A stretch of DNA of 64,000 bases. It comes from Actinomycetes bacterium. GTDB taxonomy: Bacteria; Actinomycetota; Actinomycetes; S36-B12; GCA-2699445. Positions 10,490 to 59,178 of the stretch are shown here, piece by piece. The notes beneath the pieces are model-generated. The model saw only the letters and a list, made by a program, of their open reading frames with translations, was not told where the DNA came from and did no database searches. Positions within the stretch are counted from its first letter, which is position 1; each line of letters opens with the position of its first letter. The stretch lies in contig JAHZLH010000065.1 in the NCBI GenBank assembly GCA_022599915.1, positions 1,155 to 65,154 on the forward strand. Reading direction: 5' to 3'. The position numbers and the translations under genes were made by a program.

Positions 10490-10505
10490 ACAGTACACAC
10501 GACCA

Positions 10506-40939: not shown

Positions 40940-40962
40940 AGTGTCAGTCTTTCAAAGCAGCA

Positions 40963-40990: not shown

Positions 40991-41009
40991 AGAGTTCAAT
41001 CACTGCTTA

Positions 41010-42110
41010 CTAGGCGGTTGTCGTCTGCTCTGCTGAGTCTTCAGAGTCGGGAGATCCACCAGGACCACCGGGGCCACCTGGACCACCAAATCCTCCGGGC
41101 CCACCCGGACCGCGGTGGTGCCGACCCTCACCTCGCTCCGGGAGTTCCTCGGTGTCGAGGACCTTGAACTGCTTATTCAGCTTCACCAGCACACCGCCGT
41201 CATCAGTACGGACGATCACGTAATAGCGGTTCCCCTTCTGGACCGCGCGCATAGCAGTCCCATCAACCGCTGCCGTTGCCGCCGACTCAGCTTTCCGCTC
41301 GGTATTGCCGGTGAGTGGCTTGCCTGGTCCACGCTTCGCCTTCATGATCTTCTGCACAGCAAACTCGCTATCCAATAAGACGACTCGTTTCTTGCCCGAC
41401 TGCATTTTCACAAAGACTGCATAGCCACCATCGGTTTTGCTGAACACCTGCTTCGGCTCGCCGTTCGGCAGCGCTTCTTGTGCAGCGGCTTTGGCCTGCT
41501 CCGCGGCTTCACCGGTGACCGGCTCGCCCTTGGGCCCCCTGCGGTCAGGCAGATCCTTGACCTCTTCCACCGCGTAGTTCTCATCCAGCAACACCACGAC
41601 TCGGTTACCGTCGTCATTGGTCATCCCCACCGCGTAGCCGCCATCCGGTCGGGCAAAGACGTGGTGAGCGGTGCCCCCCGATACTTCGGCTTCTGCGGCC
41701 GCGGTGGCCTGTTCGGCGGCTTCACCGGTCACCGGCTCGCCCTTGGGGCCGTGGCCGCGACGATCGCCCAACTCCTTGACCTCTTCTGGTTCGAAGTTGT
41801 CCGTCAGCAACACGACGACGCGTTGGCCGTCGGCGTTGGTCATACCCACGGCGTAGCCGCCGTCGGGTCGGGCGAAGACGTGGTGAGCAGTACCCCCCGG
41901 CACCGCGTCTGTCGCGGCAGTCTTGGCTTGTTCGGCGGTTTCACCGGTGACCGGTTCACCCTTGGGTCCGTGCGGTCCTCGGTGCTGTCGCTCCGACTGC
42001 GCACTCTGGCTACCGTCCTGCGCGTTGGCCAGGCCAATCCCGCCCATCGCCGCTGCCGTGAGGGCAATAGCACCAGCGCCGACGCCCAAGGCTGCAATCT
42101 TGTTATTCAT
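41010..42110 (-). CDS. Secreted protein with four tandem PepSY domains and a GPGG-rich tail
   Basis: The unit KGEPVTGEAAEQA.AAA...GGTAHHVFARPDGGYAVGMTN.DG.RVVVLL...EVK.L repeats four times. Signal peptide present. ATG at 42110 has GGAGGA 7 nt upstream and is preferred over 42149. Confidence 0.75.
   Translation of the reverse strand: MNNKIAALGVGAGAIALTAAAMGGIGLANAQDGSQSAQSERQHRGPHGPKGEPVTGETAEQAKTAATDAVPGGTAHHVFARPDGGYAVGMTNADGQRVVVLLTDNFEPEEVKELGDRRGHGPKGEPVTGEAAEQATAAAEAEVSGGTAHHVFARPDGGYAVGMTNDDGNRVVVLLDENYAVEEVKDLPDRRGPKGEPVTGEAAEQAKAAAQEALPNGEPKQVFSKTDGGYAVFVKMQSGKKRVVLLDSEFAVQKIMKAKRGPGKPLTGNTERKAESAATAAVDGTAMRAVQKGNRYYVIVRTDDGGVLVKLNKQFKVLDTEELPERGEGRHHRGPGGPGGFGGPGGPGGPGGSPDSEDSAEQTTTA
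41139..41981 (-). repeat. Four tandem ~70-aa PepSY-coding repeats
   Basis: Units 1 and 2 are near-identical at protein level. Units 3 and 4 are progressively diverged. Confidence 0.6.
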
Positions 42111-42218
42111 CTCGATTCCTCCAGGTTTCCCTTTGGTTGTCGAGTTCACTGTTCACCCGCTGATTCAGAGAGCGTCGTGATCAGGGTAAGGGTCAGGAAA
42201 GAATCCAGACTTTCTCGA

Positions 42219-44021
42219 TCAGCCGTTTGCAGGTCGCTTCGGAATCCCAGGGGCGGGCAGATTGTCATAGACCCGATTCAATCGAGGCGATCCCAGCCCG
42301 GTGGCTAGGTCGTAGCCCTTGCCAGCCTCACAGCAGCCTTGATCGTAAAGATCGTTGTTTCCTTGGGTGATGTCGCGGATGCTGTCAGATCCCGACCCCA
42401 GTGAGTACAGCAGCGGTGAGACTAGCCCTAGCGGTGGTCGGCCCTTGCGTTGCTCATTGCCCGCCATCGTGGCGACCGCGGCAGCCAAGAAGGGCGTGGC
42501 GGCACTGGTGCCACCAACCGGTTGGACAACAAGTTGTGAGTTGATTGCGGTCCACAGCGGCCAGCCGGGGGAAAGGCCAGCGTGGAGTGCCACGTCGGGA
42601 AGGCTGCGGGTTTTACCCGGGATTCCGGCTTTCTTCTGCCACCACGGCTTGTTCACCACCAGAGACTTGCCACCGCCACCGCTGAGGTTTGCCGGGCCGA
42701 GCGGTGGTTGTAGCCCGGAGTCGTTCCACGCCCACTCCTTCTTCAGGGTGTTGTTCTTGCGTACCGTGAGTTGGCTACCCCCGACGGCGGTAATGCCCTG
42801 GGTCGCGGCTGGTAGATTTACCGAAAGTTGCGGGTCACCTTCGCCCGTGTCCTGGTCGACGCAATCGCTGGAGCCGCTATCTCCGGCTGCGGCGAAGACC
42901 GATACGCCGGCCAGGGACAGCCGAGTCGCTACCGATGCGGTGATCTCGAAGCCGGGGAGCCAACCCAAGTCCTGGGCGGCACTCAGTTCACACATACCGT
43001 AGGAGGAGGTAACGGCATCGGGCAGCTCGCCACCGTCAAAGGCGCTGGCGTAGAGCAGGAAAGAACGTGGGTCCACATTGACGGTCTGTACGACATCGAC
43101 GGAACTCCCCTTGGGCAGCATCGCCTGGGCGACTTGGACATCGAGGTCACCCTCGGCTCCCTCAGGTATCTCCCCCTCGATACCGGGCAGAGTTGATCGA
43201 GTGAACCGGATGCTCGGCAGGTCGAAGCATTTGCGTGACGCCAGTAGCGCCTCATCGGAGAATCCTTCCCCTTGCGCGATAACCAAGAGGCGGGTTTCCC
43301 GCCCTACTTTTCGACCCGAGGGTATGTCGTCCAAGCCGTAGGCGGTTCGCAGTTGGTTGTAGGAGTAGGTGTAAGTGCTGGTCTGCTCGCCGATCTCACT
43401 CAGGCAGCCTTCGGGTGTCCCGCGATTCTTGCCAGTGAATGATTCCGGGCTTTGCGACTGTTGGCTGATCGGAGTAGGTTCGTAGGCGGCTTGGACATCG
43501 ATGCCCGACCATTCCGTGATCAACGGTGCGATCCGATCCGGCGGCGTCAGAACGTAGGCGAACTCTGCCGCGCCACCGGGCAACGCAACGTTTTGAACCT
43601 CAACCTCGGCTCCGGTCCAGGCGGATAGCTGCTCCGCTGTGCCGGAGATACCGGCGAACACGCCGGTGCGATCCATCCGAAGTCGCAGCCCAAAGCTCTC
43701 GACGTCGTCGCGGAGTGCCTGAATCGTGTCTGGCTGCGCGCCGTATTGCTTGCGGATCTTTTTTCGGCTGGGGAAGTTCCGGTAGCTCTCGGAGTTCGGA
43801 TTCGACACCTTGCGCAGGGCCTTGTTGGCGGCGCGTTCGTTACGGGCCAGTCCGACGTGGAAGGTGATGTCGTCGCTAGCGGTCGCGCGGAGTTCCGCCT
43901 CGGTTGCGTTGCGGTCTTCGGCGGTGGCGCCGGTGGCGCCCGAGATCAGCAACGCGGCGGCTACGAGGGCGAGCAGTGGTCCCCTTGCGGAACCGGAGCG
44001 TATGGCACTGAGGCGGATCAT
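42219..44021 (-). CDS. S53 (sedolisin/kumamolisin-type) serine-carboxyl peptidase with pro-domain
   Basis: Signal peptide MIRLSAIRSGSARGPLLALVAAALLISGATGATA. N-terminal pro-kumamolisin-like activation domain. Catalytic Ser context GGTSAATPFLAA. ATG at 44021 is preferred over the track start 44177. Confidence 0.8.
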   Translation of the reverse strand: MIRLSAIRSGSARGPLLALVAAALLISGATGATAEDRNATEAELRATASDDITFHVGLARNERAANKALRKVSNPNSESYRNFPSRKKIRKQYGAQPDTIQALRDDVESFGLRLRMDRTGVFAGISGTAEQLSAWTGAEVEVQNVALPGGAAEFAYVLTPPDRIAPLITEWSGIDVQAAYEPTPISQQSQSPESFTGKNRGTPEGCLSEIGEQTSTYTYSYNQLRTAYGLDDIPSGRKVGRETRLLVIAQGEGFSDEALLASRKCFDLPSIRFTRSTLPGIEGEIPEGAEGDLDVQVAQAMLPKGSSVDVVQTVNVDPRSFLLYASAFDGGELPDAVTSSYGMCELSAAQDLGWLPGFEITASVATRLSLAGVSVFAAAGDSGSSDCVDQDTGEGDPQLSVNLPAATQGITAVGGSQLTVRKNNTLKKEWAWNDSGLQPPLGPANLSGGGGKSLVVNKPWWQKKAGIPGKTRSLPDVALHAGLSPGWPLWTAINSQLVVQPVGGTSAATPFLAAAVATMAGNEQRKGRPPLGLVSPLLYSLGSGSDSIRDITQGNNDLYDQGCCEAGKGYDLATGLGSPRLNRVYDNLPAPGIPKRPANG

Positions 44022-44307
44022 TCGAGTCCCTTCTACGAGCGAACATCTCTGTGCCTCTGAACCTAGCAGTGGACACCAGTCGACAGGCGCACAGTGGTGT
44101 TGTGGTTGCGGCTCATGCCGATCTGGTTGGACTAGTGGCGAAGGGCCGATCGCTCTCGAGGTGTTGCGGGAAGCCAAGCGGTAGACATGACGGCTCCGGA
44201 GGAGTGCCCGCTGAACAATCGGTGGCGGCTACGCCGTGAACCAAGGGATGCGCTACGTCGTGCAGTAACTCCTCAGTTCAGTCATTTCAGTGCAGTAATC
44301 GACGACA

Positions 44308-46394: not shown

Positions 46395-46431
46395 CGGCAA
46401 CGCCGGGCGGAAACGCGCGGTTGCCCTATTG

Positions 46432-46463
46432 GTAGGTCCGCAGCCTTCGGGTTGCGGACCTAC
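46432..46463. terminator. Bidirectional hairpin between convergent GDPD gene and RiPP precursor A
   Basis: GTAGGTCCGCAgCC-ttcg-GGtTGCGGACCTAC, a 14-bp stem with a UUCG-type loop. It lies 38 nt after the + stop and 6 nt after the - stop. Confidence 0.6.
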
Positions 46464-46468
46464 TTGCG

Positions 46469-46876
46469 TTAGCGTGCGGAATCGACGTCTTGTGTCCAGG
46501 TCTCATGGCTGACTGCGCCAGTGCAACTGGCACACGGGCAGCAACACGCGAGGCCGGACGCGTCCAGCCCCAACTGATCGTCAGCCGCCAGCACCTCCTC
46601 CGGCGCCTGCGGGATCGGAAATCGGTGAATCGCTTTCATGCCCCGGCCCACCGAATGCCAGTCGCCTGGGGAAGCCCCTGGGTCCTCGAAAAACTCCACC
46701 TCATATCGCTCGGGAAACATCAGCCCTTCGGCGTGCAGGATCGGGGTGGGGTCGGCGAGGAGTTGTTGCTTGAAGTCGCCGTCAATCCAGGCGCGGGCGA
46801 TCAGTCGAGAAATGACCGACTCCCATTCGTCCCGGTACTCACTGAATTCATCGGTGGCGCTGCTCTCGGCCGTCAC
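46469..46876 (-). CDS. RiPP precursor A, nitrile-hydratase-like leader peptide (NHLP) family, poly-Cys core
   Basis: 135 aa. The leader has the NHLP pattern ARAW.D..FKQ.L...P...(EG)...Y.VEF..DP....GDW..VGRG. The C-terminal core is LACCCPCASCTGAVSHETWTQDVDSAR after ...LDASG. The GTG start overlaps the LLM stop (GTGA). Confidence 0.85.
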   Translation of the reverse strand: MTAESSATDEFSEYRDEWESVISRLIARAWIDGDFKQQLLADPTPILHAEGLMFPERYEVEFFEDPGASPGDWHSVGRGMKAIHRFPIPQAPEEVLAADDQLGLDASGLACCCPCASCTGAVSHETWTQDVDSAR

Positions 46877-48174
46877 GGTGACACCGCCGCGCTGCGATCG
46901 GTCGCGGTTCGCAGCACCGGTGGTTCTGGGGCCTCCAGGCCGAACTCCGGCATCACCTTGGTGGCGAACAACTCCAGTTGTTCCAAAGTCTCACCGAGCG
47001 GCATAACTGCGTAGGGGAGATGCCACACCAGGTACTCGAACGGCACGGTGTTGAGTTGCTGCTCCAGGTTCCGCTTGACGTCGTCAACCGTCCCGCCGAT
47101 GAGCAGCCCCACTTTCGTCAGCCGCTGCAATACCGACTCACCTGGTGCCGGGATCGGACCTTCTTCATCGGGGTACTTAAAGCCCTGCAAGTGGCCGAAG
47201 GCGCCGTACCAATCCCGCCAGGCAAGCACCTCGTAGCGCTCCATGGCTTCTTGCGCGGCGATCGCGGACTTGTGGATGCTGAATCCGCGCAACAGGCCCA
47301 TATTCTGGCCGATCTCGAAATCAAAGCCCGCCTTTCCCGCCTCGTAGCGGTAGAGATCGGCGTACCACTTGGCCAGCATTACTGGCGCGAACATGGTGAT
47401 CGGAATGAGACCCTGTGAGCCGGCCCAACGAACCGTGCTGGGGCTGACCGAAAATGGCTGGAACATCGGCGGATGTGGGTCTTGCAGTGGTGTCGGTACC
47501 ACGGAAACACCTGTCAGCGTGCCGTCGTCGTCGACCTCGCCGGGCACCCCGTACTTCCGGGTCAGCGTATCGGCGGGCGGCCAATCGGGAATCCCCTCGT
47601 CGAAAGGGAAAGGGACTTCGTAGTGGCGGCTACGGTACTGCAGCAAGTCCTTTTCCCAGGCCAGCTTCATGATCCGGTAGTGCTCGAAGTACAACTCCTT
47701 GTTGCGCTCTTCGGCTGCCTCATCATTGCGATCCGAAGCCCCTACATTGAGGCGCTGACCCAAGACATTCATCCAGCGCTTCTGATAGCCGCGGGCAATA
47801 CCCACGAACAACCGCCCGCCGATCATGTGGTCGATCATTGCGATCTTTTCCGCCAGCCGAATCGGATCCCTACTGGGTAAGACATAACCCAGTTGGCCGT
47901 GGCGCAGCCGTTGGGTGGCTTGGCCAAGAAAGAGGTTCCACAGGCCTGGATCTGGCGACATTTCCATCCCCTCGGAATGGAAATGGTGTTCGACGTGGGA
48001 CAGTCCCCAATAGCCGAGTTCGTCCATGGCGACGGCAATATCGCGCATGCCGTGCATGACGTCTTGGAACACCTGCGGATCACGACCGATGGGGCGATGC
48101 TCGCGCATCTGCTCGTAGTCACCCATGGAAGGGTAAATCTGCACGATTACCTTGGGCATGCGGACTCGCCTCAC
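46873..48174 (-). CDS. Luciferase-like (LLM-class) flavin-dependent oxidoreductase, co-operonic with precursor A
   Basis: 433 aa. The N-terminal TIM-barrel pattern (VQIYPSMG...LGYWGLSHVEHHF, GRLFVGIARGY) is typical of bacterial luciferase-like monooxygenases. The start may be the ATG at 48159 (MPKVIV). Confidence 0.8.
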   Translation of the reverse strand: MRRVRMPKVIVQIYPSMGDYEQMREHRPIGRDPQVFQDVMHGMRDIAVAMDELGYWGLSHVEHHFHSEGMEMSPDPGLWNLFLGQATQRLRHGQLGYVLPSRDPIRLAEKIAMIDHMIGGRLFVGIARGYQKRWMNVLGQRLNVGASDRNDEAAEERNKELYFEHYRIMKLAWEKDLLQYRSRHYEVPFPFDEGIPDWPPADTLTRKYGVPGEVDDDGTLTGVSVVPTPLQDPHPPMFQPFSVSPSTVRWAGSQGLIPITMFAPVMLAKWYADLYRYEAGKAGFDFEIGQNMGLLRGFSIHKSAIAAQEAMERYEVLAWRDWYGAFGHLQGFKYPDEEGPIPAPGESVLQRLTKVGLLIGGTVDDVKRNLEQQLNTVPFEYLVWHLPYAVMPLGETLEQLELFATKVMPEFGLEAPEPPVLRTATDRSAAVSP

Positions 48175-48380
48175 TTTGTCTGTCGCAACTTGTCCAGCCT
48201 AGTCAGCAACGGCGCTTTTGCACGTTGCTCGGGATGATCTTCCGCGAGTTAGTGGGACTAGCCGTGGCAAGTCCTGGTAAACACTGTTCGATTTTCGTAG
48301 TTTTGAGCGAAACTGGGCGTATCGGTTGCGATAGGTGTCTGGGCGGCGATTAAATCAAAGGGAATGAACTGGAGGTTCAC

Positions 48381-48788
48381 ATGGCAACCTGGGAACGCGC
48401 CGGAGGCGCCGCCACTGACCACAAGGACGACTACGCCGGTGAAGTGAACGACGCGATGCACAAAGTGATCGCTCGAGCATGGCACGATGCGTCGTTCAAG
48501 CAGGAGCTGATTAGCGAGCCCTACAAGGCATTTGCCGATGAGGGGGTGCACTGGCCGGACCACTATAAGGTGGAGTTCTACGACGACCCTTCGGCAAAGG
48601 TCGGTGACTGGACCAACGTTGGTCGCGGTCAAAACGGCATGCTGAAGGTGCCAATTCCGCCCGCACCGGGTGGTGGCAAGGTCAGCGATGACGATCTTGC
48701 TGCGATCGGTGGTGCCGGAACGGACTGTTGCTGCTGCACAGGCTTGTGTACATGCACCGGTGCCGTCAGCCACGACACTTGGTACTGA
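48381..48788 (+). CDS. RiPP precursor B, NHLP family, poly-Cys/Thr core
   Basis: 135 aa with the same leader pattern as precursor A. Double-glycine site ...DDDLAAIGG is followed by the core AGTDCCCCTGLCTCTGAVSHDTWY (48714-48785). RBS GGAGG is 7 nt upstream. Confidence 0.85.
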   Translation: MATWERAGGAATDHKDDYAGEVNDAMHKVIARAWHDASFKQELISEPYKAFADEGVHWPDHYKVEFYDDPSAKVGDWTNVGRGQNGMLKVPIPPAPGGGKVSDDDLAAIGGAGTDCCCCTGLCTCTGAVSHDTWY

Positions 48789-48805
48789 CCCGATAACCGC
48801 TTTTT

Positions 48806-48841
48806 CGAGGGTGGCGGCGCCGTACGGTGCCGCCACCCTCG
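48806..48841 (+). terminator. Strong hairpin between precursor B and the cyclodehydratase gene (attenuator/partial terminator)
   Basis: CGAGGGTGGCGGCg-ccgtacgg-tGCCGCCACCCTCG, a 13-14-bp GC-rich stem preceded by TTTTT. It starts 18 nt after the precursor stop and lies 125 nt before the next ATG. Confidence 0.55.
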
Positions 48842-48966
48842 ATTGCGTTAGATCTCAGACGTCGGCGGTGCGAGGCCCGATTATTCAGCGTTATCTGTCG
48901 CAAGCCAGAACGATTGCTAAACCCGCGATAGCGTAAGACTGCTTCCTACTGCTGCAAGGAGAAGTA

Positions 48967-51249
48967 ATGGCCATTGATGTGCCGAGGTTCCGCTCCGACT
49001 ATCACGTGTCTTCGATCCCCGGTCAGGGAATCTTCCTGCTGACCGAGGCGCTGCCTATCGTGTTGAACGGTGAAATCTATGAGGCGATCTGTCCATTGAT
49101 TGACGGCCAACGCACGGCTAGCGAGATCGCAGCAGAGTTATCGGACAGTGTGAGTGCGGCCGAGGTCTATTACGGTCTGGCGAAATTGGAAGAACGAGGA
49201 TTCATCGAGGAAGTGGTGGCTGCACTCGATCCGGGGGTCGCTGCGTTTTGGCGAGGTGTTGGGCAAGATCCGGAACAGGCATTGGCACGGTTGGCAGAGC
49301 AACCAGTACAACTCGTCACGCTCGGCGCCATCGATCGGGAACATACAGAAAATGTGCTTGCAGCCGCCGGCGTCCATCTTGCCGAGGATGGTTCCCGCAC
49401 CGTTGTCTTCGCTGATGACTATCGATACCCGGAACTCGATGACATCGACGCGAAAATGTTCGCTAATGAAGGGTCCTGGGCGCTGGTCAAGCCCACCGGT
49501 ATCTACCCGTGGGTTGGGCCGTTCCTGCAACCGGCGAACGGTGGTTGCCTGCGCTGCCTGATTGATCGAATCAACATGAACTACATGGCGGACACGTTCG
49601 TGTTGGAGCAGTCGCGCATCACACCGGTGACGGCTCGTGCCTACAACCAGGCCGGTGTTGCGGCGGTCTCGAACTTGGCAGCAGTGGAACTAGCGAAATG
49701 GATCGTGTCGGGGGAAAGCCACCTCGTCAATGAGTTGGTATCGCTGTCGATGAACACCATGCGGTTGGACCGACACTCGCTGACTCCGCGACCGCAATGC
49801 CGCCGGTGTGGTGAGCCCGACTACCGGGAACGTCGCACCAAGTTCCGTGAGCCCACCTCGATCGACTTTCAGTCCCGGCCGCATTTGCATATCAGTGACG
49901 GCGGTCACCGTACTGCCACTGCCGAGGAGACGCTGGAGCGATATTCGCATCTAGTCAGTCCGATTACTGGTGTGGTGTCGCGATTGGAGAGCGTGGCGCA
50001 GCAAGACCACCCATTGGTGCATGCATATTCCGCCAGCCACAACTGGGCAACTCATCCAGACAGCCTGTCCTTCATGCGGCACACATTGCGCTCCCAAAGT
50101 GGTGGCAAAGGCACCTCGGAAATCCAGGCCAAAGTTGGCGCGATGGCCGAGGCGTTTGAGCGCTACAGCGGGGTGTTCCGGGCCGATGAAATCCGCAAGC
50201 GGGCGACGCTAGCGGAGATGGAGGCCGAGGGGCTGGAAATTCTGCTGCCGCAGGAGATTCTGCTGTTCAGTGATTCGCAATACCAGCGGCGGGCGGACAT
50301 CAACGCTGAGGGAAATAGTTTCCAGATTGTGCCGGAACCGTTCAACCCCGAAATGCCTGCGGATTGGTCGCCAGTATGGGCCCCCACTTCAGATCGTTTC
50401 GTGTGGTTGCCGACGGGTCTGCTGTATTACTCGTACAGCAAGCTGGCGCCGCATGACACTCCCAACCGGCTGGCTTACTACGCCGATTCCAATGGCTGCG
50501 CAGCGGGAAACAGCAAAGAGGAGGCAGCTCTGCAAGGTCTGTTGGAACTCGTAGAGCGCGACGCAGTTGCCACCTGGTGGTACAACCAGGTGCAGCGCCC
50601 ACAGGTAAATCTCGACGACCTCGATATTCCGTATCTGGCACAGTTGCGTGATTGGCTGGACTCCGAGGGTCGGGACCTGTGGGTGCTCGACATCACCAAC
50701 GACATTGGTATTCCATCCTTTGCTGCGGTATCGCGGATTCGCGAACCTGCGGACGATGGCAGTGAAAAAATCGTGGTCGGCTTCGGTTCCCATCTGGATC
50801 CGCGAGTCGGAATCATGCGAGCAGTAACCGAGGTGAATCAATTCTTCGCGAGTCTGTTTGCCTTAGGTGAACAGGACTTGAGTCGTGCTTTCGACCCGGG
50901 TGCGGTGGATTGGTGGGAGAACGCTTCTACCAGTGAAAAGAAGTATCTGCTGCCGCTTGATCAACCAGGCGTGAGGTTCGAGGACATCCCGAACCTTGCC
51001 AGTGACGATCTACTTACCGAGTTGAACACTGCTATCGAGATGGTGGAAGCGCGTGGGTTGGAAGTGCTGTTGCTGGATCAGACTCGGCCTGATGTGGAGT
51101 TCCCGGTGATCAAAGCACTTGTGCCGGGGATGCGTCACTTCTGGTCCAGGCTGGCTCCGGGGCGACTCTTTGATGTGCCGGTGGAGTTGGGCTGGCTGCC
51201 AGAGCCGCTGGCTGAGGGTGAACTCAACAAAACGCCGATCTTCTTCTAG
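48967..51249 (+). CDS. Fused TOMM cyclodehydratase (leader-binding winged helix + E1/ThiF-like domain + YcaO domain)
   Basis: 760 aa. The N-terminal winged-helix-like segment (IDGQRTASEIAAEL...YYGLAKLEERGFI) is followed by an E1-like part with CLRC ... CRRC zinc-type pairs. The YcaO/SagD-like region (GGKG...AMAEAFERYSG...ELVERDA) ends in a Pro-containing tail KTPIFF. Confidence 0.85.
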   Translation: MAIDVPRFRSDYHVSSIPGQGIFLLTEALPIVLNGEIYEAICPLIDGQRTASEIAAELSDSVSAAEVYYGLAKLEERGFIEEVVAALDPGVAAFWRGVGQDPEQALARLAEQPVQLVTLGAIDREHTENVLAAAGVHLAEDGSRTVVFADDYRYPELDDIDAKMFANEGSWALVKPTGIYPWVGPFLQPANGGCLRCLIDRINMNYMADTFVLEQSRITPVTARAYNQAGVAAVSNLAAVELAKWIVSGESHLVNELVSLSMNTMRLDRHSLTPRPQCRRCGEPDYRERRTKFREPTSIDFQSRPHLHISDGGHRTATAEETLERYSHLVSPITGVVSRLESVAQQDHPLVHAYSASHNWATHPDSLSFMRHTLRSQSGGKGTSEIQAKVGAMAEAFERYSGVFRADEIRKRATLAEMEAEGLEILLPQEILLFSDSQYQRRADINAEGNSFQIVPEPFNPEMPADWSPVWAPTSDRFVWLPTGLLYYSYSKLAPHDTPNRLAYYADSNGCAAGNSKEEAALQGLLELVERDAVATWWYNQVQRPQVNLDDLDIPYLAQLRDWLDSEGRDLWVLDITNDIGIPSFAAVSRIREPADDGSEKIVVGFGSHLDPRVGIMRAVTEVNQFFASLFALGEQDLSRAFDPGAVDWWENASTSEKKYLLPLDQPGVRFEDIPNLASDDLLTELNTAIEMVEARGLEVLLLDQTRPDVEFPVIKALVPGMRHFWSRLAPGRLFDVPVELGWLPEPLAEGELNKTPIFF

Positions 51250-51257: not shown

Positions 51258-52658
51258 ATGCCGACGACTACTTTGCGATTCGCCGCAGGCAACGAACTCG
51301 TCGAAGCTGATGGGCAGGTGGTGCTGAACACTCCCCGTGGTCCGGTGCGCTTCAGTGATCTGTCGCAGACCCAGGCATTGGCCTTGAAGCTTCTGCAGCA
51401 GGGAGGAACGGAGCGCGATCTCGTCGACGCCATGCCGGAGGCGGAGGAGCAGATCTGGGCACGAATGATCGTCAATCGCCTGATCGGATTAGGGGTGGTC
51501 GTTAGAGAGTTGGCCGGACTTATTCGTATCGAAGTTATCGGTGATGGCTACCGCGGCAACGGCCGCATCCTGCCAGACGACCAAGAGTTCCAGTTGAGCA
51601 GATTCAGCTACCTGCATCGTGATGGCGACGCGCTGGTACTGGAGTCACCGCGCTCGCTCGTGCGAATCCTGATTCTGGATGCTGCGACAGTGATGCCAGT
51701 GCTCGGTGGGATCGGCGCTCCGACCACGGTGGCGCAACTGCGTTCGATCGATGACACTGCGGAGCCGCTAGTTCAAGCACTGTTTCAGGAAGGCTTCCTA
51801 GAGCCGACCGCACCACCACCGGCGGGCAACCTGGAGGCGGCAGCGTTGCAGGAGTGGTCCTTCCATGACCTGTTGTTTCACTCACGATCCCGCCAAGGCC
51901 GCCATCGTTATCCGTATGGCGCCAGTTACCGGTTTGAGGGAGTTCGCGAGCCACTGCCTGCGGTCGCGGAGGTACCGGAGGGCGCTGGGACGGTGTCGCT
52001 GCCACGTCCTGATCTGGATGAGTTGCGGCACAACGATCCCAGTTTCATCGATGTAGTGGAGCAGCGGCGCAGTTGGCGCAGCACCGGTCCGGAGCCGCTC
52101 ACGCTGGCGCAACTCGGTGAGTTCCTGTTTCGTGCCGCCCGAGTGCGTGGCCGGAGGGGCACCGAACATGAGGAAATCAGCAATCGACCCTATCCCGGTG
52201 GTGGCGCCGACTACGAACTTGAGATTTACCTGCTGGTGAATCGGGTGACTGATGTTGAACGCGGGCTGTACCGCTATGACCCGCTAGGCCATCAACTGGT
52301 GCATGTCAGCGATTGGACGGATTTGGTGCAGGCGGTGGCGGTGGACACTTGCCGGAAAGCGCCACCAGGGGAAATCCCGGATGTGCAGTTCGCGATCACG
52401 GCCCGGATGATGCGGCTGACCTACAAGTACGACTCGATTCCCTACTCCGTGGCGCTGAAAGATGTTGGGGTACTGCTCCAGAACTTCTACCTGTGTGGCA
52501 CTGCTATGGGATTGGCCCCGTGTGCGGTGGGTGGCGGCAATAGCGAGTTATTTGCGACTGCCGCTGGTCTGTCGCCGTTCGTAGAACCGCAGATCGGTGA
52601 GTTCCTGTTAAACACTCAAAACCCCGCTGAGAGTGGTGACGTTCCCGGTACCTGGTAG
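51258..52658 (+). CDS. SagB-type FMN-dependent azoline dehydrogenase (nitroreductase fold)
   Basis: 466 aa. The C-terminal half has RRSWR...RPYPGGGADYELEIYLLV...GLYRYDP..H.L and CAVGGG motifs typical of SagB/McbC-type dehydrogenases. It starts 9 nt after the cyclodehydratase stop. Confidence 0.85.
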   Translation: MPTTTLRFAAGNELVEADGQVVLNTPRGPVRFSDLSQTQALALKLLQQGGTERDLVDAMPEAEEQIWARMIVNRLIGLGVVVRELAGLIRIEVIGDGYRGNGRILPDDQEFQLSRFSYLHRDGDALVLESPRSLVRILILDAATVMPVLGGIGAPTTVAQLRSIDDTAEPLVQALFQEGFLEPTAPPPAGNLEAAALQEWSFHDLLFHSRSRQGRHRYPYGASYRFEGVREPLPAVAEVPEGAGTVSLPRPDLDELRHNDPSFIDVVEQRRSWRSTGPEPLTLAQLGEFLFRAARVRGRRGTEHEEISNRPYPGGGADYELEIYLLVNRVTDVERGLYRYDPLGHQLVHVSDWTDLVQAVAVDTCRKAPPGEIPDVQFAITARMMRLTYKYDSIPYSVALKDVGVLLQNFYLCGTAMGLAPCAVGGGNSELFATAAGLSPFVEPQIGEFLLNTQNPAESGDVPGTW

Positions 52659-52688: not shown

Positions 52689-53231
52689 CTAGCCACGCAG
52701 TCGTTCCATGGTGGCGTGCTGAATCGCGAGGAAGTCGATATCAGCCACGGGAGTATTCCGGCAGTTGCCATCAGTCACGACAACGGCGCTAGCTAGTGAC
52801 CGCTCCACCCATCGATGTTCATGCGTCACCAGTACTGCCGTCATCCCCTCATCGGCTGCGGCCAGCAGCCGGTCGTGGATCGCGGCGGTGACCTCTGGTG
52901 CGATGGCTTTGGTGGGCTCATCCAGCAGGAGCGCGGCCGGCGATTGCTCGAGCAGGTGATCGATCTCGGCTAGCCGAGCGGCGCCGGTTCGAGACGACCA
53001 ATCTTGACCATGGATCGGATAATCGCCGCCACAAAGTTCCCCGTTGACCTCTCCGGCTGTGGGCTGGATCTGCTCGGCGAGCACCTTCAGTAGGGTGCTT
53101 TTCCCCGCACCGGAGGCACCGATGATTGCGGTGACCGTGCCTTGCGAAATCTCCAGATTGACGTCGGTCAGCACCCGCTTGCGGTCAAGGTCAGCGGCGA
53201 CGCCTTGCAGCGTCCAAGCGTTAGTGGTCAC
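52689..53231 (-). CDS. Short degenerate ABC-type ATPase (about 180 aa)
   Basis: Walker A GASGAGKST, Walker B LLLDEPT and H-loop VTHEH are present. The helical subdomain is almost absent, and SSRTG replaces the LSGGQ signature. The proposed GTG start at 53231 overlaps the upstream ABC stop by 11 nt. The upstream part of the track ORF (to 53708) is an out-of-frame shadow. Confidence 0.6.
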   Translation of the reverse strand: MTTNAWTLQGVAADLDRKRVLTDVNLEISQGTVTAIIGASGAGKSTLLKVLAEQIQPTAGEVNGELCGGDYPIHGQDWSSRTGAARLAEIDHLLEQSPAALLLDEPTKAIAPEVTAAIHDRLLAAADEGMTAVLVTHEHRWVERSLASAVVVTDGNCRNTPVADIDFLAIQHATMERLRG

Positions 53232-56163
53232 TGGCGTCGTCAGTGGCCGAGGATGAATCAGCGTCGGTGCTGTCGGTGCTGTCGGTGCTGTCGGACTGCG
53301 ACTCGGGCGAGGGTTCGGCCTTGGCGTGCTTAGCGGCCTTGGTGCTCGACCCGTCCGCTGACTTGCTGCTGGTTTTCTTTGAGCCGGCTGACTGATCGGA
53401 TGATGACTTCGCGTTCTCGGTGGTATCCCCGGCAGCAGACTTACTCTTATTCTTACTCGCGCTCTTCTTATGGTCACCGCCACCGCCACCGCTGGCAGCG
53501 CTGGTCGAGTCCTTCTGATGGGTGGCCTCGCCGGTTGTGCCAGCCGAGTCGTCGTCGGCGGGAGCAGCAGGAGGTGAATCACCACCTGCCGCCTCGGCTT
53601 GGTCCTCGTGGAAGCCGGTGAGATCTCGCTTAGCCAGTTTGGCGAACTCGCCCTTCTTGGCCATGAGTTCGGTGTAGGTGCCCTCTTCGACCACGCGACC
53701 GGCATCAATCACCAGGATTCGGTCAGCGCTCTCGATAGTGGAGAGACGGTGAGCAACAATGATTCGAGTCGCACCCAGTGCGTTCATCGCGGCGGTGACT
53801 TTCGCCTGTGCGACATTGTCCAGCGCACTGGTGGCCTCATCCATGATGATGATCGAGGGATTTCGCACCAACGCCCGAGCCAACAGAATGCGCTGCGCCT
53901 GACCGCCGGAAATCAGCGATGGATCGACCAGGGTGTGCATCCCCATCGGCATCGCCCGGATGTCATCAGCCAGCGCCGCTGATTCTGCAGCCTGCCACGC
54001 GGCCCCTTCGTCATAACCAGCGCCACCCATGATGTTCTGCATCATGGTTGCCCGCATGATCTGACCGTTCTGCACCACGACCCCCATCTGTCGGCGCACG
54101 AGATCTGGATCTAGGTCGGACAGCGGACGTTCGTCAAAGAGGATTTGGCCGTCCTCTGGTGAGTCAAAACCCAGCAACAACCGGATCGTGGTGGATTTTC
54201 CCGAGCCGGAGGGGCCGGTAAGGGCAACCATTTCGCCGGGCTTGACATGAAAGCTCAGGTTGTCCAGCACGATGGGGGTGTTCTTCTCGTACCGATAGCG
54301 GACCTTGGTGAGCTGAATGTCACCGGTCAATCGACCGGGATCGGACTTGTCGGAGGTTACCGCCGGGACGTCGTCCATGATCGGGCGCAATAGTCGGAAA
54401 ATTGGTGCAGCCGAACCAATGGGGAGCAGGACTGAGGTCAGCGCGGTCAGTGCACCGAAACTCGCGCCGAACGCGCTGAGCAGCGCGAGGAAGGTTGCGG
54501 ATGAGACGTCAGGGGTCCCCGGCCCGGATCGGGTCTTAATCATGAAAATGAACAGGGCGGTGGCGAAACTGGTGGCGAACAGTGTCCACCCTTGGACTTT
54601 TCCGAAGACATTGGTCATCCGCGAGATGGCCACAACCTGATCGCGGACCAGATCGAGATAGCGGCCCTGCATTCTGGTCGTGGCTCCCGCAAGACGCACC
54701 TTACTGATGCCCGACAGCACCTGGATGACCCAAGAGGTCGAGGTCAACTGTGCGGTGATGGATTGCCAGTACAGCTTTTGCACTGTCCGAACCGCAAAGA
54801 TCCCGATGACCACGGTCACGATAATGACGACTAGCCCGGCCAGCCCGAGCGCAAAATCGTAGTAGAACATCAAACCGATGTTGACCAGGGCGAAGACCGC
54901 GGCGAGTACACCGCCGATCACCTGCACGTTGATGATCTGTTGGAAGGCGTCCACGGCCATGACTCGTACGGAGAGGTCACCGGAGGAGAACTTCTGGAAA
55001 AACGCCACCGGCATAGCGAGTACTCGATCCCAGAAGGCAGTCTGCACCCGCTCGATAGCGCGCTGGGAGATTCGAGACATGGCTCGGTACTGCACGAAGG
55101 AGAAGACCCCGGCGGCTAGCGCAGCCGCAGTCAGTGCCACCCCTGCCTGAACCAGCAGGTTGGTGTCTTGGTTGGGGACGATGGAGCCGAGGACAACGTT
55201 GGTCAGGATCGGAGTCAACAGGCCGATAACGGCCACGACCGCAGCCAGACCGATGGTCCACAGCCATTCCCGCCGCATACCTGAAACTGCCAGCCGGGCC
55301 ACATCCCTGCTGGTCACTGGCCGATCGCGATCCAGGGTTGGGTAGAACTGCATCGCATTTTCGTTCAGGTCCGCAGCTCGGTCGGGTGTCAGCGGCGTAC
55401 CCGGGTCGAGCGGGCCGGTGCGAAGGAGGTATCCCTTGCCGCCTGGGATCAACGCCACCGGGGTGCCGTCGTTCAGTGACTGGTCGAGAGCCAAGAAGGC
55501 GTGAGCTCGAGGCTGCTGCCAGTTCCCGGTCAGCTTCACCGGCCGGACCCTGATCCCGGAGGCATGAGCAATCCCTTGGAGTTGCTGCATCAGGTCGCTG
55601 TCTTTCGGGGTGCTCACCGGCCGACGAACGGTGAACCCTTCGAATTCACCGACCAGTCGAATCACCGCCGTGAGCGAGTCATCGGCGGGCTCGTCGAGAT
55701 CCTCGGATGGATTCTTGATGGCCAATGCCGCTCGGCGGTAGGACCGATCCAGGTTCTTGGTGTCAGCTTGGTAGGCCTGCTGGCTGATGTTTCGTCGCTC
55801 GGTGAAGTAGGCAGTGACTGTTTGTTGGTAGAAGTCGGCAAGATCTGAGCCAGTCTGATAGTTCACCGCGGCCAGTGATTCCAGGTATTTGCTGGCATCA
55901 GGAGTACCGCTGATTGTTGTACGGCTGATGCTGGCACCGATACGCGGCACCACCAGCAAACTCGTGTGATCGGCTCCCGGCACTAGTGCAGGAGCAGTCA
56001 ACGTCACCAACGGCACCAAGGTTCCGGAATCAGCTTTGACAAAGATGTCAGCAACTCCGGCATCGAGTGATGCGGCGGTTGTCGCATCGGTCAGCAGGAT
56101 GGCATCACGTTCCGACATTGCCGCCATCACCCGCCTCAGCGACGAGTCGGAAATACTCGCCAT
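53221..56163 (-). CDS. NHLP-type bacteriocin export ABC transporter, permease/ATPase subunit 2 (no active peptidase), with long low-complexity tail
   Basis: 980 aa. A ~280-aa N-terminal accessory region is followed by a 6-TM permease and an NBD (GPSGSGKST, LSGGQAQR, IIIMDEATSALD). The last ~150 aa are Ser/Asp/Lys/Ala-rich. Alternative starts are at 56127 and 56118. Confidence 0.85.
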   Translation of the reverse strand: MASISDSSLRRVMAAMSERDAILLTDATTAASLDAGVADIFVKADSGTLVPLVTLTAPALVPGADHTSLLVVPRIGASISRTTISGTPDASKYLESLAAVNYQTGSDLADFYQQTVTAYFTERRNISQQAYQADTKNLDRSYRRAALAIKNPSEDLDEPADDSLTAVIRLVGEFEGFTVRRPVSTPKDSDLMQQLQGIAHASGIRVRPVKLTGNWQQPRAHAFLALDQSLNDGTPVALIPGGKGYLLRTGPLDPGTPLTPDRAADLNENAMQFYPTLDRDRPVTSRDVARLAVSGMRREWLWTIGLAAVVAVIGLLTPILTNVVLGSIVPNQDTNLLVQAGVALTAAALAAGVFSFVQYRAMSRISQRAIERVQTAFWDRVLAMPVAFFQKFSSGDLSVRVMAVDAFQQIINVQVIGGVLAAVFALVNIGLMFYYDFALGLAGLVVIIVTVVIGIFAVRTVQKLYWQSITAQLTSTSWVIQVLSGISKVRLAGATTRMQGRYLDLVRDQVVAISRMTNVFGKVQGWTLFATSFATALFIFMIKTRSGPGTPDVSSATFLALLSAFGASFGALTALTSVLLPIGSAAPIFRLLRPIMDDVPAVTSDKSDPGRLTGDIQLTKVRYRYEKNTPIVLDNLSFHVKPGEMVALTGPSGSGKSTTIRLLLGFDSPEDGQILFDERPLSDLDPDLVRRQMGVVVQNGQIMRATMMQNIMGGAGYDEGAAWQAAESAALADDIRAMPMGMHTLVDPSLISGGQAQRILLARALVRNPSIIIMDEATSALDNVAQAKVTAAMNALGATRIIVAHRLSTIESADRILVIDAGRVVEEGTYTELMAKKGEFAKLAKRDLTGFHEDQAEAAGGDSPPAAPADDDSAGTTGEATHQKDSTSAASGGGGGDHKKSASKNKSKSAAGDTTENAKSSSDQSAGSKKTSSKSADGSSTKAAKHAKAEPSPESQSDSTDSTDSTDADSSSATDDASDH

Positions 56164-58345
56164 GTGCCGCTAGGAGTTCCTCGTGGGTGCCCCGTTCCAA
56201 GACCACGCCACCGCGGCCCAAGACCACGATCTCGTCAGAGTCGCGAATCGTGGACAACCGGTGAGCGATGATCAGACATGTGAGTCCTGACGCTCGCAAG
56301 GCATCATCCACCAAGGCTTCCGAGGTGGTATCCAAAGCTGACGTGGCCTCATCCAAGATCATGATCCGGGGTCGGGTGGCTAGCGCCCGAGCGATCTCGA
56401 GCCGCTGACATTGGCCACCGGAGAAGTTACGGCCGTCCTCGGAAACGTGGGTGTTGATGCCACCGGTTCGCGCCAAGACATCGGGAAGTATTTGCGCGCC
56501 ACGCAGCGCCTCGATCACGTAGTCATCGGGAACGGCATCGTTCCACAGTGTCACGTTCTGTTTGACGGTGCCCTCGAACAACACGATGGTTTGGTCGACC
56601 TTGGCCAGCACGCCAGACAAACTGCCCTCTTTATAGTCGGTGATCGACTTGCCGTCTACGAGCACTTCACCGCTCCAGGGGCGCAGCAGTCCTGCTGCCA
56701 GATTCCCGATCGTGCTTTTTCCTGCTCCGCTGACACCGACGAGTGCGACTCGTGCCCCGGGTTTCAGATCGATACTGAAGTTGTCGATGACCGGGGCTCG
56801 CGTGGTGCTGTAGCCGAAGGTCACATTCTTCAACTCCAGATGACCTGCCGGTTTGTCAGGTTGCGCGTTGCCAGCCTCGGTCAGTTGCGGATCTTCCGCC
56901 ACTTTCAAGACATCGTCGAGCGATTGCAGATTCGCGGTGATGACCTGCAACTGGGATCCGGTGCTCATCAGGGTTTGGATTGGGGAGTTGATGTTGATGG
57001 CGATGGTCTGCATCGCGAGCAAGGCGCCAAACGAAAACTCGCCGGCGATCACTAGCGCTCCGCCGAGAATGAGGATCGTGGCGCTGCTGAGCGAAAACAG
57101 TGTGGTGGGTGCCGAGCCAATCACCGCTGTGGAGTTCACCAGTCGAGTCTCAGCAGAAATGTATTGCGACTGCTGGCCGGACAGTGAAGTGAAGATGTCG
57201 TCTTCGGTGCCAGTCGACTTGATGGTTTCAATGCTGCGCACCGCCGATACCGTGGTGCCGCGGAGGTTGTTTTGGGCGTGAGTCACGAGTGACTGCGCAC
57301 TTCGCCGCCGCGACAGTACGACCTGCAAGATCACCACGTTGATCAAGGACAGCAGCACGACTAGCAGTGCGATCAGCCACTGGTAGTAGAAGAGCAAGAT
57401 GACGAACCCGATCAGGCCGATGATCGCAATCCCCGCAGAGGCCAACTGGGTGGCCAGGAGTTGCGCGACGCCAACGTTGTAGGTGACCCGCTGCGAGAGG
57501 TCGCCCGCAGCCCGCTGCATGTAGAACAGCATCGGCATGCGGAGCAGGTGATCGAGGAATTTCGCACTGCCCACGAGCGAGAACTTCACTTGTAATCGTG
57601 TGAGTACGCCGTACTGCGTGATGGCTAGCCCGCCGCGCAACAACCCAATCGCGATCAGGGCGGTGATCACCGTCGGGACAATATTGTCGTCGCCTGCGGT
57701 GAAGTAGTCGTTGACGATTAGTTCGGACAGTGGCGGCAAGGCCAGGCCAAGCAGCATGACCAGCAGGCCGATGATGATGGCGAAGGCGGTTCCCCGCAGG
57801 CTGTGTCGCAGCCAAGCGCCCAAGGCGGGAATCACCCGGAACGGATGCCCGGTCTTTTTGAAATCCGGTCCAGGTGAGAACCACAGCACGGCATCGGAGA
57901 ACTGTTCTTCCATTTGCTGCGCAGTGAACCGATAGCGACCGCTACCTGGATCGTTGATGTAGTACTTGCCGTCGTGCGCACCTTCCAGTACCACGAAGTG
58001 CGATCGCCGAATCCAGATGATCGCGGGAACCTGGACCCCCTGCAGCTTGTCGAAGCCACCGACAGCGCCGTCGGCCTTCAGCCCATACTTTTCTGCTCCT
58101 TTGACGATGTCGAGGGCGGTAGCGCCATCGCGTGAGATACCCAGGGTGTGGCGCAAGTCAGACAGTGGCACCCACTTGCCGTAATGGGCCAACACCATCG
58201 CCAGCGATGCGGCACTGCACTCCACCTCCGACATCTGGTTGATGGTGGGAACTGCCGCCCGTTTGGGTTTGGTCACCACCTGCGTCGGTGACACCGTCGG
58301 TGTGGGATTCGGGGATGCCGCTGCGGTGGCGTCCGATTGACTCAT
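56105..58345 (-). CDS. NHLP-type bacteriocin export ABC transporter with N-terminal C39 peptidase (peptidase/permease/ATPase subunit 1)
   Basis: 746 aa. The C39 triad context is intact (VECSAASLAMV, RSHFVVLEG, INDPGSG), followed by a 6-TM permease and an NBD (GVSGAGKST, FSGGQCQR, IMILDEATSALD). Confidence 0.9.
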   Translation of the reverse strand: MSQSDATAAASPNPTPTVSPTQVVTKPKRAAVPTINQMSEVECSAASLAMVLAHYGKWVPLSDLRHTLGISRDGATALDIVKGAEKYGLKADGAVGGFDKLQGVQVPAIIWIRRSHFVVLEGAHDGKYYINDPGSGRYRFTAQQMEEQFSDAVLWFSPGPDFKKTGHPFRVIPALGAWLRHSLRGTAFAIIIGLLVMLLGLALPPLSELIVNDYFTAGDDNIVPTVITALIAIGLLRGGLAITQYGVLTRLQVKFSLVGSAKFLDHLLRMPMLFYMQRAAGDLSQRVTYNVGVAQLLATQLASAGIAIIGLIGFVILLFYYQWLIALLVVLLSLINVVILQVVLSRRRSAQSLVTHAQNNLRGTTVSAVRSIETIKSTGTEDDIFTSLSGQQSQYISAETRLVNSTAVIGSAPTTLFSLSSATILILGGALVIAGEFSFGALLAMQTIAININSPIQTLMSTGSQLQVITANLQSLDDVLKVAEDPQLTEAGNAQPDKPAGHLELKNVTFGYSTTRAPVIDNFSIDLKPGARVALVGVSGAGKSTIGNLAAGLLRPWSGEVLVDGKSITDYKEGSLSGVLAKVDQTIVLFEGTVKQNVTLWNDAVPDDYVIEALRGAQILPDVLARTGGINTHVSEDGRNFSGGQCQRLEIARALATRPRIMILDEATSALDTTSEALVDDALRASGLTCLIIAHRLSTIRDSDEIVVLGRGGVVLERGTHEELLAAHGEYFRLVAEAGDGGNVGT

Positions 58346-59178
58346 TCTTGGTCCCCGAAGAGCAGTTCAATCGGATGCGGTTCTGAGTAGCGGTTCAACA
58401 CGGTGACTATTTGTCCCACGGCCGGAAGGTCGCTGGCAGAGACGTCGGCGTCATCAGCCACCACTACCGTCACCTGATGCAGTGGCAGATCCTCACCCCG
58501 AGTGAGTAACCCCAGTCGATCCTCGCCACCGGCCAAGACCGCTATCGAGTCTTGATTAGTCGGGGAGGTGGCGACGAATGTTACCTTGCCCGGCAGTTCC
58601 TGGGATTTGCCAGCCGATGTCGTGTAACTGATGGTGAGGCTCTCGGGGTCGTTGTAGAGCGTGGCGACTTCCTGGCTGGTAAAGAGAATGAAACTCAGGT
58701 TTGCGGCATCGGTGACCGCGCCGGTGACGGTCAGGAGTTTGCTACCCGCGTCCACTCCGGTGCCACTCTCGCCGCTGAGGTTGGAGACGGTCCCGGCCAA
58801 TGGTGCGCTGACCTTGATGGTGTCGCTTCCGTTGAAGGAGGTGACTTCCGCGAGGGCGTCTCCTTCTTTCACTTGGTCGCCGTCCGAGACCGCAAACGAG
58901 ACAGTCCCCGCCTGTGGTGCGGAGACTTCTCGCACTTTCGTTGGATCAGAGGTAATTCCGTACTGCTCGGTCTGCTGTGGGACAGTGCCAAACAACGCCC
59001 ACACTAGGCCGGCAGCGAAAGCGACCAAAACGACGCTCAGCGCGATCCATTTGCCGACCGTCGTAGTCGACACCACTTCATCGAGGGCGTCGGCGGATTG
59101 GTAGGTCTTGTGCAGCGGGTGGCTGCTGTGCTCCTGCTGTGCGGAACTGCTGGTTTGTGGACTTGTGGACACAGGCAC
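58342..59178 (-). CDS. HlyD-family secretion/adaptor protein of the NHLP export system
   Basis: 278 aa with one N-terminal TM helix (WIALSVVLVAFAAGLVWALFG) and a barrel-sandwich-like segment (G.V....V..GD.V..GD.LA.V). 4-nt overlap with the ABC gene. Confidence 0.75.
   Translation of the reverse strand: MPVSTSPQTSSSAQQEHSSHPLHKTYQSADALDEVVSTTTVGKWIALSVVLVAFAAGLVWALFGTVPQQTEQYGITSDPTKVREVSAPQAGTVSFAVSDGDQVKEGDALAEVTSFNGSDTIKVSAPLAGTVSNLSGESGTGVDAGSKLLTVTGAVTDAANLSFILFTSQEVATLYNDPESLTISYTTSAGKSQELPGKVTFVATSPTNQDSIAVLAGGEDRLGLLTRGEDLPLHQVTVVVADDADVSASDLPAVGQIVTVLNRYSEPHPIELLFGDQE

Follow-up and report, generated by a model that had tools for sequence, protein, structure and literature searches.

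The occurrence of a luciferase-like flavoenzyme gene beside the precursor gene of a cluster for peptides made on ribosomes and modified after translation (RiPPs) raises the question of what, if anything, the enzyme does to the peptide. The question was addressed for a 64,000-nucleotide stretch of DNA from an Actinomycetes bacterium (assembly GCA_022599915.1, contig JAHZLH010000065.1, positions 1,155 to 65,154), referred to here as the window. In this window a gene for a luciferase-like monooxygenase (LLM) overlaps preA, the gene for precursor A, and a second precursor gene, preB, lies nearby with genes for a YcaO cyclodehydratase and a SagB-type azoline dehydrogenase. Both precursors have nitrile hydratase-like leader peptides (NHLP). 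The best account of the LLM, held with moderate confidence, is that it acts as a group C two-component monooxygenase dependent on reduced flavin mononucleotide (FMNH2) and was recruited specifically to tailor the product of a two-peptide, NHLP-led polyazole RiPP cluster.

The linkage between the LLM and preA was examined in ten loci, the window included, whose LLM is at least 70% identical to the window enzyme. The LLM gene lies directly upstream of preA in nine of the ten (the window, L001, L084, L082, L085, L087, L171, L172 and L173). YcaO, SagB and ABC cluster genes also are within reach in nine loci, the remaining one, L172, having only preA in the available DNA. In six loci the genes are colinear as LLM-preA-preB-YcaO-SagB, and in most of these the HlyD and ABC exporter genes come next. 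The pair survives rearrangement of the cluster. The window and L001, a Micrococcales metagenome-assembled genome (MAG) with a 91%-identical LLM, share a divergent layout in which exactly the LLM-preA segment is inverted. In L087 a gene for an M16 peptidase is inserted between preA and preB with the LLM-preA pair intact, and in L172, for which 8.7 kb upstream and 1.6 kb downstream are available, the pair has neither preB nor YcaO beside it and is apparently detached from YcaO. Genes upstream of the LLM vary between loci and the LLM therefore marks the edge of the cluster. These data support the LLM as a real, conserved part of the RiPP cluster that is paired specifically with precursor A, in agreement with the original prediction. 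The LLM also is the best-conserved protein of the cluster; in comparisons of the same genomes it surpasses YcaO, SagB and preA. Its gene shows purifying selection (dN 0.07-0.21 with dS saturated; dN/dS about 0.08-0.12). The LLM proteins of the window and L001 (3593-4876) are 91% identical yet the synonymous sites of their genes are fully saturated (pS 0.78), and GC3 or codon usage seems to be strongly different in the two genomes.

The junction between the two genes was read directly in the sequence. The LLM stop codon TGA (46873-46875) lies inside a GTGA tetranucleotide of which the GTG (46876-46874) is the preA start, which confirms the overlap described originally. This GTG is judged from the reading frame to be the only plausible preA start because use of the next in-frame start codon, Met53, would delete the NHLP leader domain. 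At the other end of the LLM gene, the length of 433 residues given in the original prediction is that of the maximal open reading frame (ORF). The true start is probably the ATG at 48159, with an enzyme of 428 residues, because MPKVI is the N-terminus in all 24 aligned homologues and a GAGG Shine-Dalgarno sequence is located 5′ of this ATG. A stop/start overlap of 4 nt is common in bacterial operons and unremarkable alone. In relatives the LLM-preA junctions range from -14 to +12 nt, such that the exact overlap is not conserved; it is the conserved adjacency that matters. The 66-nt stretch at 46410-46475, 3′ of preA, folds with a minimum free energy of -28.6 kcal/mol (z = -3.97) and none of 200 shuffled sequences folds as well. 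The hairpin is not accompanied by a U-tract and hence was missed by a simple terminator scan. It is the only hairpin of the unit, there being no hairpin or gap between the LLM and preA. The two genes thus present the features of a translationally coupled pair, namely location on the same strand, a stop/start overlap and no terminator between them. As the hairpin follows preA and nothing separates preA from the LLM, the two genes are predicted to form a single transcript, and the earlier proposal that enzyme and precursor are made from one mRNA is plausible.

Three deeper branches of the LLM (50-53% identity) also lie within NHLP/YcaO clusters. The gene order is LLM-precursor-YcaO in L004, an Acidimicrobiia MAG with a 50%-identical LLM, precursor-YcaO-SagB-M20-LLM-radical SAM in L089 (Rudaeicoccus), and precursor-LLM-YcaO in L174, in which a gap of 82 nt separates the precursor gene from the LLM. 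The cluster linkage of L174 was predicted from a clade-specific WHLP signature before its context was looked up, and was then borne out. In a neighbor-joining tree constructed before L174 was found, all context-checked RiPP-linked LLMs form one clade that is sister to non-RiPP relatives. The core of this clade was recovered in 500 of 500 bootstrap replicates, the core with L089 in 367, and the clade of all RiPP-linked LLMs in 310. In a reverse test, the LLM was present in none of 80 metagenomic loci with a YcaO protein 35-44% identical to that of the window. Because these related NHLP/YcaO loci do not carry the enzyme, the LLM is a clade-specific accessory, probably recruited once, and not a core component of thiazole/oxazole-modified microcin (TOMM) systems. 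In L089 (Rudaeicoccus suwonensis; 6800-11245) the LLM gene has the gene of an M20-like peptidase on one side and that of a B12-binding radical SAM enzyme on the other, and the locus has a single precursor that ends CCCPCCTCTA plus an ORF for a 60-residue membrane protein.

When 80 loci of LLM relatives were surveyed in a forward test, only L001 and L004 had NHLP, YcaO or SagB genes. The other 78 loci (35-52% identity) showed varied metabolic contexts, and the neighbors of distant relatives include hydrolases, short-chain dehydrogenases/reductases, acyl-CoA dehydrogenases and other LLMs. The ORF-based clustering of neighbors missed the LLM in many high-GC loci and was used qualitatively only. 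The enzyme instead may leave the peptide unmodified and travel with the cluster as a small-molecule metabolic, self-protection or detoxification enzyme. The ordinary metabolic contexts of the distant relatives accord with this possibility, as do the absence of a RiPP recognition element (RRE) domain from the LLM in a Pfam search and the locus of Microbacterium sediminicola, the sole exception among the close relatives. The LLM gene of this species follows ispG and is situated 3.6 kb beyond the exporter genes with no adjacent preA, in a region read as far as SagB on the upstream side. A role of this type nevertheless is rather unlikely: the LLM and preA remain adjacent in nine of the ten close loci despite the rearrangements, the LLM of L172 stays with preA and not with transporters or YcaO, and the enzyme is independently embedded among cluster genes in L089 and L174. 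Moreover, an immunity gene would be expected to track the exporters rather than one precursor. The original prediction had considered that an LLM conserved beside unrelated genes would speak against a role in the cluster. This is mostly the situation for relatives of 35-56% identity, but not for the closer ones, as cluster genes are found in nine of the ten loci at 70% identity or above; the three branches at 50-53% also have them.

The LLM belongs to the luciferase-like monooxygenase superfamily, its match to PF00296 (Bac_luciferase) scoring 91.8 bits against a cut-off of 27.9. An AF2 model (pLDDT 81.7, pTM 0.85) is a TIM barrel with 148 fold matches in the PDB at E ≤ 0.001 in Foldseek, the best 50 of which are all LLM-fold flavin or F420 enzymes. 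Residues E62-H63-H64 align with the EHHF motif of luciferase 8CBB, and this triplet and R128-G-Y-Q are each at least 97% conserved across 89 LLM relatives. The original prediction drew attention to a length ~100 residues in excess of a typical LLM. However, almost all of the best 120 among 633 detected homologues are 409-435 residues long, and a length of 410-433 residues with the extra ~100 is common to relatives outside RiPP clusters. Such a length is normal for the subfamily and was rejected as a special feature.

The cofactor bears directly on the type of reaction. A sequence profile search of the PDB with the LLM returned 13 matches, all FMN enzymes and none an F420 enzyme, which include the E. 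salina luciferase 8CBB, RslO1 (7BIP), LuxA/B, diketocamphane monooxygenase and PuwE. Similarly, the first 26 Foldseek ranks for the model are occupied by FMN-type luciferase and Baeyer-Villiger enzymes, the first F420 enzyme, Mer, being at rank 27. A 50%-identical relative in Mesobacillus (L090) shares a single run of same-strand genes with those for an FMN reductase (FMN_red) and a fusion of 3,4-dihydroxy-2-butanone 4-phosphate (DHBP) synthase with flavokinase, which flank the LLM gene (6719-7750, 11235-11786). Mesobacillus, a member of the Bacillaceae, is not expected to make F420. As sequence, fold and gene context favor FMN over F420, the LLM is most readily interpreted as an FMNH2-dependent two-component monooxygenase of the luciferase/Baeyer-Villiger type.

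The option of azoline reduction, possibly with F420, that was raised originally is disfavored by the same data. In this alternative the LLM would be a reductase that uses F420H2 or FMNH2 to convert azolines to azolidines, or dehydro-residues to D-amino acids in the manner of LanJC and LxmJ. LxmJ uses F420H2, and many actinobacteria produce F420. Moreover, reduction is the best-documented role of LLMs in RiPP biosynthesis: LanJC of the birimositide cluster (PMC7268733), LpvJ and TfDapJ are RiPP-cluster LLMs that reduce dehydroalanine (Dha) to D-Ala. No NCBIfam LLM subfamily model comes near its cut-off, and the partial matches to F420-type models are as strong as those to FMN-type models. Nevertheless, every F420 model is matched only partially and scores far under its cut-off (TIGR03619, 47.8 versus 166.9 bits; TIGR03560, 39.3 versus 231.4; TIGR03621, 24.3 versus 213.15), FMN monooxygenases make up all of the closest relatives by sequence and by fold, and the Mesobacillus enzyme keeps company with flavin reduction and flavokinase functions. 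No F420 biosynthesis gene was noted among the annotated ORFs of the window, which is weak evidence as the annotation of the 64 kb is partial. No lanthipeptide dehydratase (LanB, LanM, LanKC or HopA1-type) that would make Dha was detected in the window cluster or in the relatives examined, and LanJC-like formation of D-Ala was rejected for this reason. Overall a reductase is quite unlikely, and an F420 reductase was rejected as the leading model.

If the LLM acts as a monooxygenase on the peptide, its target should be reflected in the precursor cores. Homologues of preA form 44 protein clusters with a near-invariant core, [LV]ACC[CS]PCASC[TC]GA..x..W, and those of preB form 30 clusters with the likewise near-invariant CCCC[TS]GLC[TC]CTGA[VA]S[HQNP][DE]TW[Y]. 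The near-invariant regions correspond to 46490-46560 (preA) and 48715-48785 (preB) of the window and to protein clusters P0121-P0164 and P0166-P0195. In this preA and preB are unlike the precursors of other NHLP clusters, which have hypervariable cores. Such invariance points to constraint on structure or function, for instance through binding of a metal or of one particular target, rather than to a diversifying bacteriocin.

Hydroxylation of a conserved His or Trp in the precursor follower had been suggested as one reaction of the enzyme. However, the follower His of preA is variable (H/P/L/Q/R/S/N/A/E across clusters), and the other LLM-linked precursors end TDYCCCPCCTCTA, CTCCCCTGAASGETL and CCCCCCCGAASEEIL with neither His nor Trp: the Rudaeicoccus precursor terminates in CTCTA and those of L004 and L174 in GETL and EEIL. 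The follower His or Trp consequently was rejected as the general target, both residues being missing from three LLM-linked lineages; a Trp target is possible for preA and preB only. The feature that tracks the enzyme instead is a run of at least three contiguous Cys residues, which is the only core feature common to all LLM-linked precursors. A CCC run or longer is present in every one of these (CCCPC, CCCC, CCCPCC, CTCCCC and CCCCCCC) and in only two of about 55 precursors encoded by NHLP clusters that lack the LLM. As the Cys run tracks the LLM and His and Trp do not, the poly-Cys or poly-thiazol(in)e segment is most likely the target, as a candidate based on covariation.

The reaction at this segment may be oxygenation of sulfur or oxidation of azolines, a proposal of low confidence made by analogy. 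These reactions are preferred because the nearest relatives of the LLM use flavin C4a-peroxide chemistry and because Baeyer-Villiger-type LLMs carry out sulfoxidation as well. The CTGLCTC motif of preB superficially resembles the CTLCSC metal site of nitrile hydratase, yet is located after the leader-cleavage motif. In nitrile hydratase the latter motif is found ~80 residues past the active-site Cys. CTGLCTC and CPCASC, which both follow the cleavage motif, accordingly were rejected as vestiges of the CxLC(S/T)C metal site of nitrile hydratase, since the placement does not reflect positional homology.

Taken together, these results are consistent with the following pathway. The LLM and preA would be co-transcribed, and probably translationally coupled, as a two-gene module that ends in the hairpin. 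Reduced FMN would be supplied by a reductase encoded elsewhere, as none is encoded in the cluster; housekeeping flavin reductases are able to serve two-component monooxygenases. The LLM then would engage the folded NHLP leader of the precursor, and its C4a-(hydro)peroxyflavin would oxygenate the Cys-rich core either before or after azole formation by YcaO and SagB. The most likely site would be the contiguous Cys or thiazol(in)e run, where sulfur might be oxygenated or an azoline oxidized, to give two examples. NHLP leaders are folded, and different enzymes bind different surfaces of the leader by protein-protein contacts (PMC12455567), which could explain how preA may be recognized by an LLM that has no RRE domain. 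More tentatively, the clade to which the LLM belongs may comprise luciferase-type FMN monooxygenases that install an undescribed oxidative modification on contiguous Cys/thiazol(in)e runs of a two-peptide NHLP polyazole, with the enzyme-precursor module kept even away from YcaO. It is very unlikely that the LLM is a stoichiometric partner or chaperone that is coupled near 1:1 to preA and holds or presents the poly-Cys precursor while catalyzing little or nothing, as might be imagined from the enzyme-then-substrate order with overlap, the opposite of the usual precursor-attenuator-enzymes layout seen for preB, and from the protein-protein surfaces of folded NHLP leaders (PMC12455567), given that all family-wide invariant residues are kept in the window LLM, including EHHxHSEGxE and ARGYQxRW, that purifying selection on the LLM is at least as strong as that on YcaO, and that the overlap is not conserved, the precursor gene even preceding the LLM in L174.

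A number of observations weigh against a dedicated FMN-dependent tailoring oxygenase. Neither the window cluster nor its close relatives contain a flavin reductase gene. The profile scores do not separate FMN from F420 enzymes (TIGR04020, 51.6 bits; TIGR03619, 47.8 bits; both far under cut-off), and only 62% of bootstrap replicates recover the RiPP-linked LLMs as a single clade. The varied contexts of the 78 forward-test loci and the displaced gene of M. sediminicola point in the same direction. The proposal for the target site is drawn from covariation across five precursor lineages only. Furthermore, most of the subfamily is non-RiPP and the chemistry is not transferable from any characterized relative.

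The features of the cluster are collected in Table 1. The original prediction placed the LLM-preA unit back-to-back with an operon of preB and the cyclodehydratase; the two units actually diverge, head-to-head. A GGAGG sequence is located 6 nt 5′ of the preB ATG. Neither a sigma-70 consensus match in the LLM/preB intergenic region nor a T-tract terminator in the LLM-preA/preB region was found, results that are uninformative for an actinobacterial sequence of 60% GC. The succession of preB, hairpin and YcaO is a classic precursor-attenuator layout, whereas preA comes after its enzyme. The precursors match TIGR03793 with 40.6 bits (preA) and 40.1 bits (preB), in each case under the cut-off. The YcaO protein has a winged helix-turn-helix domain at its N-terminus and exceeds the cut-offs of TIGR03604 (233.4 versus 219.25 bits) and TIGR03882 (128 versus 36.9 bits), and the SagB protein has ThcOx and Nitroreductase domains. 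The HlyD-like gene holds an equivalent position in the clusters of relatives. For the precursors and the three transport proteins, the NHLP models give the best matches yet stay below equivalog cut-offs, YcaO and SagB being above theirs. By NCBIfam thresholds, therefore, the cluster is related to the NHLP TOMM systems but has diverged from them and is not a member.

Table 1. Positions in the window of the LLM gene, its junction with preA and the surrounding RiPP cluster.
Feature	Coordinates	Strand	Details
LLM-class flavoenzyme gene	46873..48174	-	maximal ORF 433 aa; PF00296; TIM barrel model
GTGA stop/start overlap, LLM/preA	46873..46876	-	read directly in sequence
Terminator-like hairpin after preA	46432..46463	-	inverted repeat I7; predicted to close the LLM-preA unit
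Divergent intergenic region, LLM start to preB start	48160..48380	.	~220 bp
preA, precursor A	46469..46876	-	135 aa; NHLP/NHLP-Burk-like leader; core LACCCPCASCTGAVSHETWTQDVDSAR
preB, precursor B	48381..48788	+	135 aa; GG cleavage motif, then core AGTDCCCCTGLCTCTGAVSHDTWY
Hairpin preB/YcaO, attenuator-like	48805..48842	+	inverted repeat I3; 19-nt arms, 95% complementary
Fused leader-binding/YcaO cyclodehydratase	48967..51249	+	760 aa; PF02624, 295 bits
SagB-type FMN-dependent azoline dehydrogenase	51258..52658	+	466 aa; TIGR03605, 145.9 bits (cut-off 78.4)
NHLP-type ABC exporter permease/ATPase (ABC2)	53221..56163	-	TIGR03797, 655.7 bits, below cut-off 709.4
NHLP-type C39-peptidase ABC exporter (ABC1)	56105..58345	-	TIGR03796, 784.3 bits, below cut-off 853.3
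HlyD-like secretion adaptor	58342..59178	-	TIGR03794, 59.4 bits, under cut-off

Additional features were noted in and around the cluster and in related loci. The C-terminus of ABC2 (53221-53640) is a Ser/Asp/Lys-rich tail of ~130 residues that is missing from relatives of 833-862 residues, and an ORF that overlaps the end of ABC2 (52689-53708, minus strand) specifies a further ABC ATPase domain with the Walker A motif GASGAGKST. In L173 an extra ABC_tran gene follows ABC2 and may encode an immunity transporter; the same locus has a riboflavin operon (ribD, ribE, ribBA, ribH; 1414-4796) ~3-7 kb upstream of the LLM. An S53/pro-kumamolisin-like peptidase is encoded 2.3 kb beyond preA (42219-44177, minus strand), and in L084 a Pro-kuma_activ gene (2268-2906) is 7 kb upstream of the LLM. 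The peptidase could be a leader-trimming protease, or its presence a coincidence. At the cluster edge, a flavoprotein resembling type III sulfide:quinone reductase (59245-60459, plus strand; 235 bits, below the cut-off of 525) diverges from the HlyD gene. Within a few kb of the cluster, a histidine kinase and response regulator adjoin a protein with four PepSY repeats (38913-42149, minus strand).

No luciferase-like oxygenase figures among the tailoring steps known so far for linear azol(in)e-containing peptides (LAPs), and the known RiPP-cluster LLMs are reductases. The locus thus probably represents an NHLP polyazole cluster with an uncharacterized luciferase-type oxygenase in a tailoring role. 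A full-text literature search, in which subscription journals are mostly uncovered, gave no description of an LLM within a cluster of the NHLP, LAP or YcaO type. If the assignment is correct, the linear azol(in)e/TOMM class would gain its first LLM oxygenase, which would provide a first functional foothold in an LLM subfamily with >600 detected relatives and no characterized or crystallized member. Together with a near-invariant core rich in contiguous Cys, the conservation of the enzyme-precursor pair under purifying selection would make four genes with two precursors a compact, testable system for new flavin-peroxide chemistry on sulfur-rich peptides.

Among known systems, the LanJC/LxmJ-type reductases of lanthipeptide, lipoavitide and daptide clusters are, like the window LLM, PF00296 enzymes encoded in a RiPP cluster, and they act on the precursor, as the window LLM is presumed to do. 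They reduce Dha or dehydrobutyrine (Dhb) residues made by a dehydratase, which the window cluster does not have, a distinction drawn from their descriptions. In the srp proteusins (PMC10286304, PMC10858898), an NHLP-led peptide with YcaO-made azolines is similarly combined with a flavin tailoring enzyme, a leader-guided brominase that acts on a C-terminal Trp; the window cores likewise have a Trp near the C-terminus. As described there, SrpI is a flavin-dependent brominase and is not luciferase-like, and the Trp is missing from three LLM-linked precursor lineages. The luciferases and type II Baeyer-Villiger LLMs, including LuxA/B, 8CBB (the homodimeric luciferase of E. salina), RslO1 (7BIP) and 4UWM (3,6-diketocamphane monooxygenase), provide the best profile and fold matches and share the TIM barrel and EHH motif, but are only 16-20% identical to the window LLM. 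The latter has ~70-100 extra residues compared with luciferases, with low-confidence loops in the model near 135-150 and 190-230, and its presumed substrate is a peptide, as opposed to an aldehyde or ketone.

The closest parallel for the cluster as a whole is with the NHLP TOMM systems (Haft, Basu and Mitchell, 2010, PMC2887384; Cox et al., 2015, PMC4603692), which have nitrile hydratase-like leaders, a fused leader-binding/YcaO cyclodehydratase, SagB and an export set of C39-ABC, ABC and HlyD proteins in common with the window. Neither of these papers mentions an LLM, of which the window cluster has one. The NHLP-Burk systems share with the colinear relatives a tandem pair of homologous precursors that suggests a two-peptide product. 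However, a Ser/Thr kinase is part of NHLP-Burk clusters and NHLP exporters are not, whereas in the window cluster exporters are present and no kinase was seen, and preA and preB score 26.6 and 25.8 bits, respectively, against the TIGR03795 cut-off of 41. The window cluster also differs in its near-invariant poly-Cys cores, where those of NHLP systems elsewhere are hypervariable.

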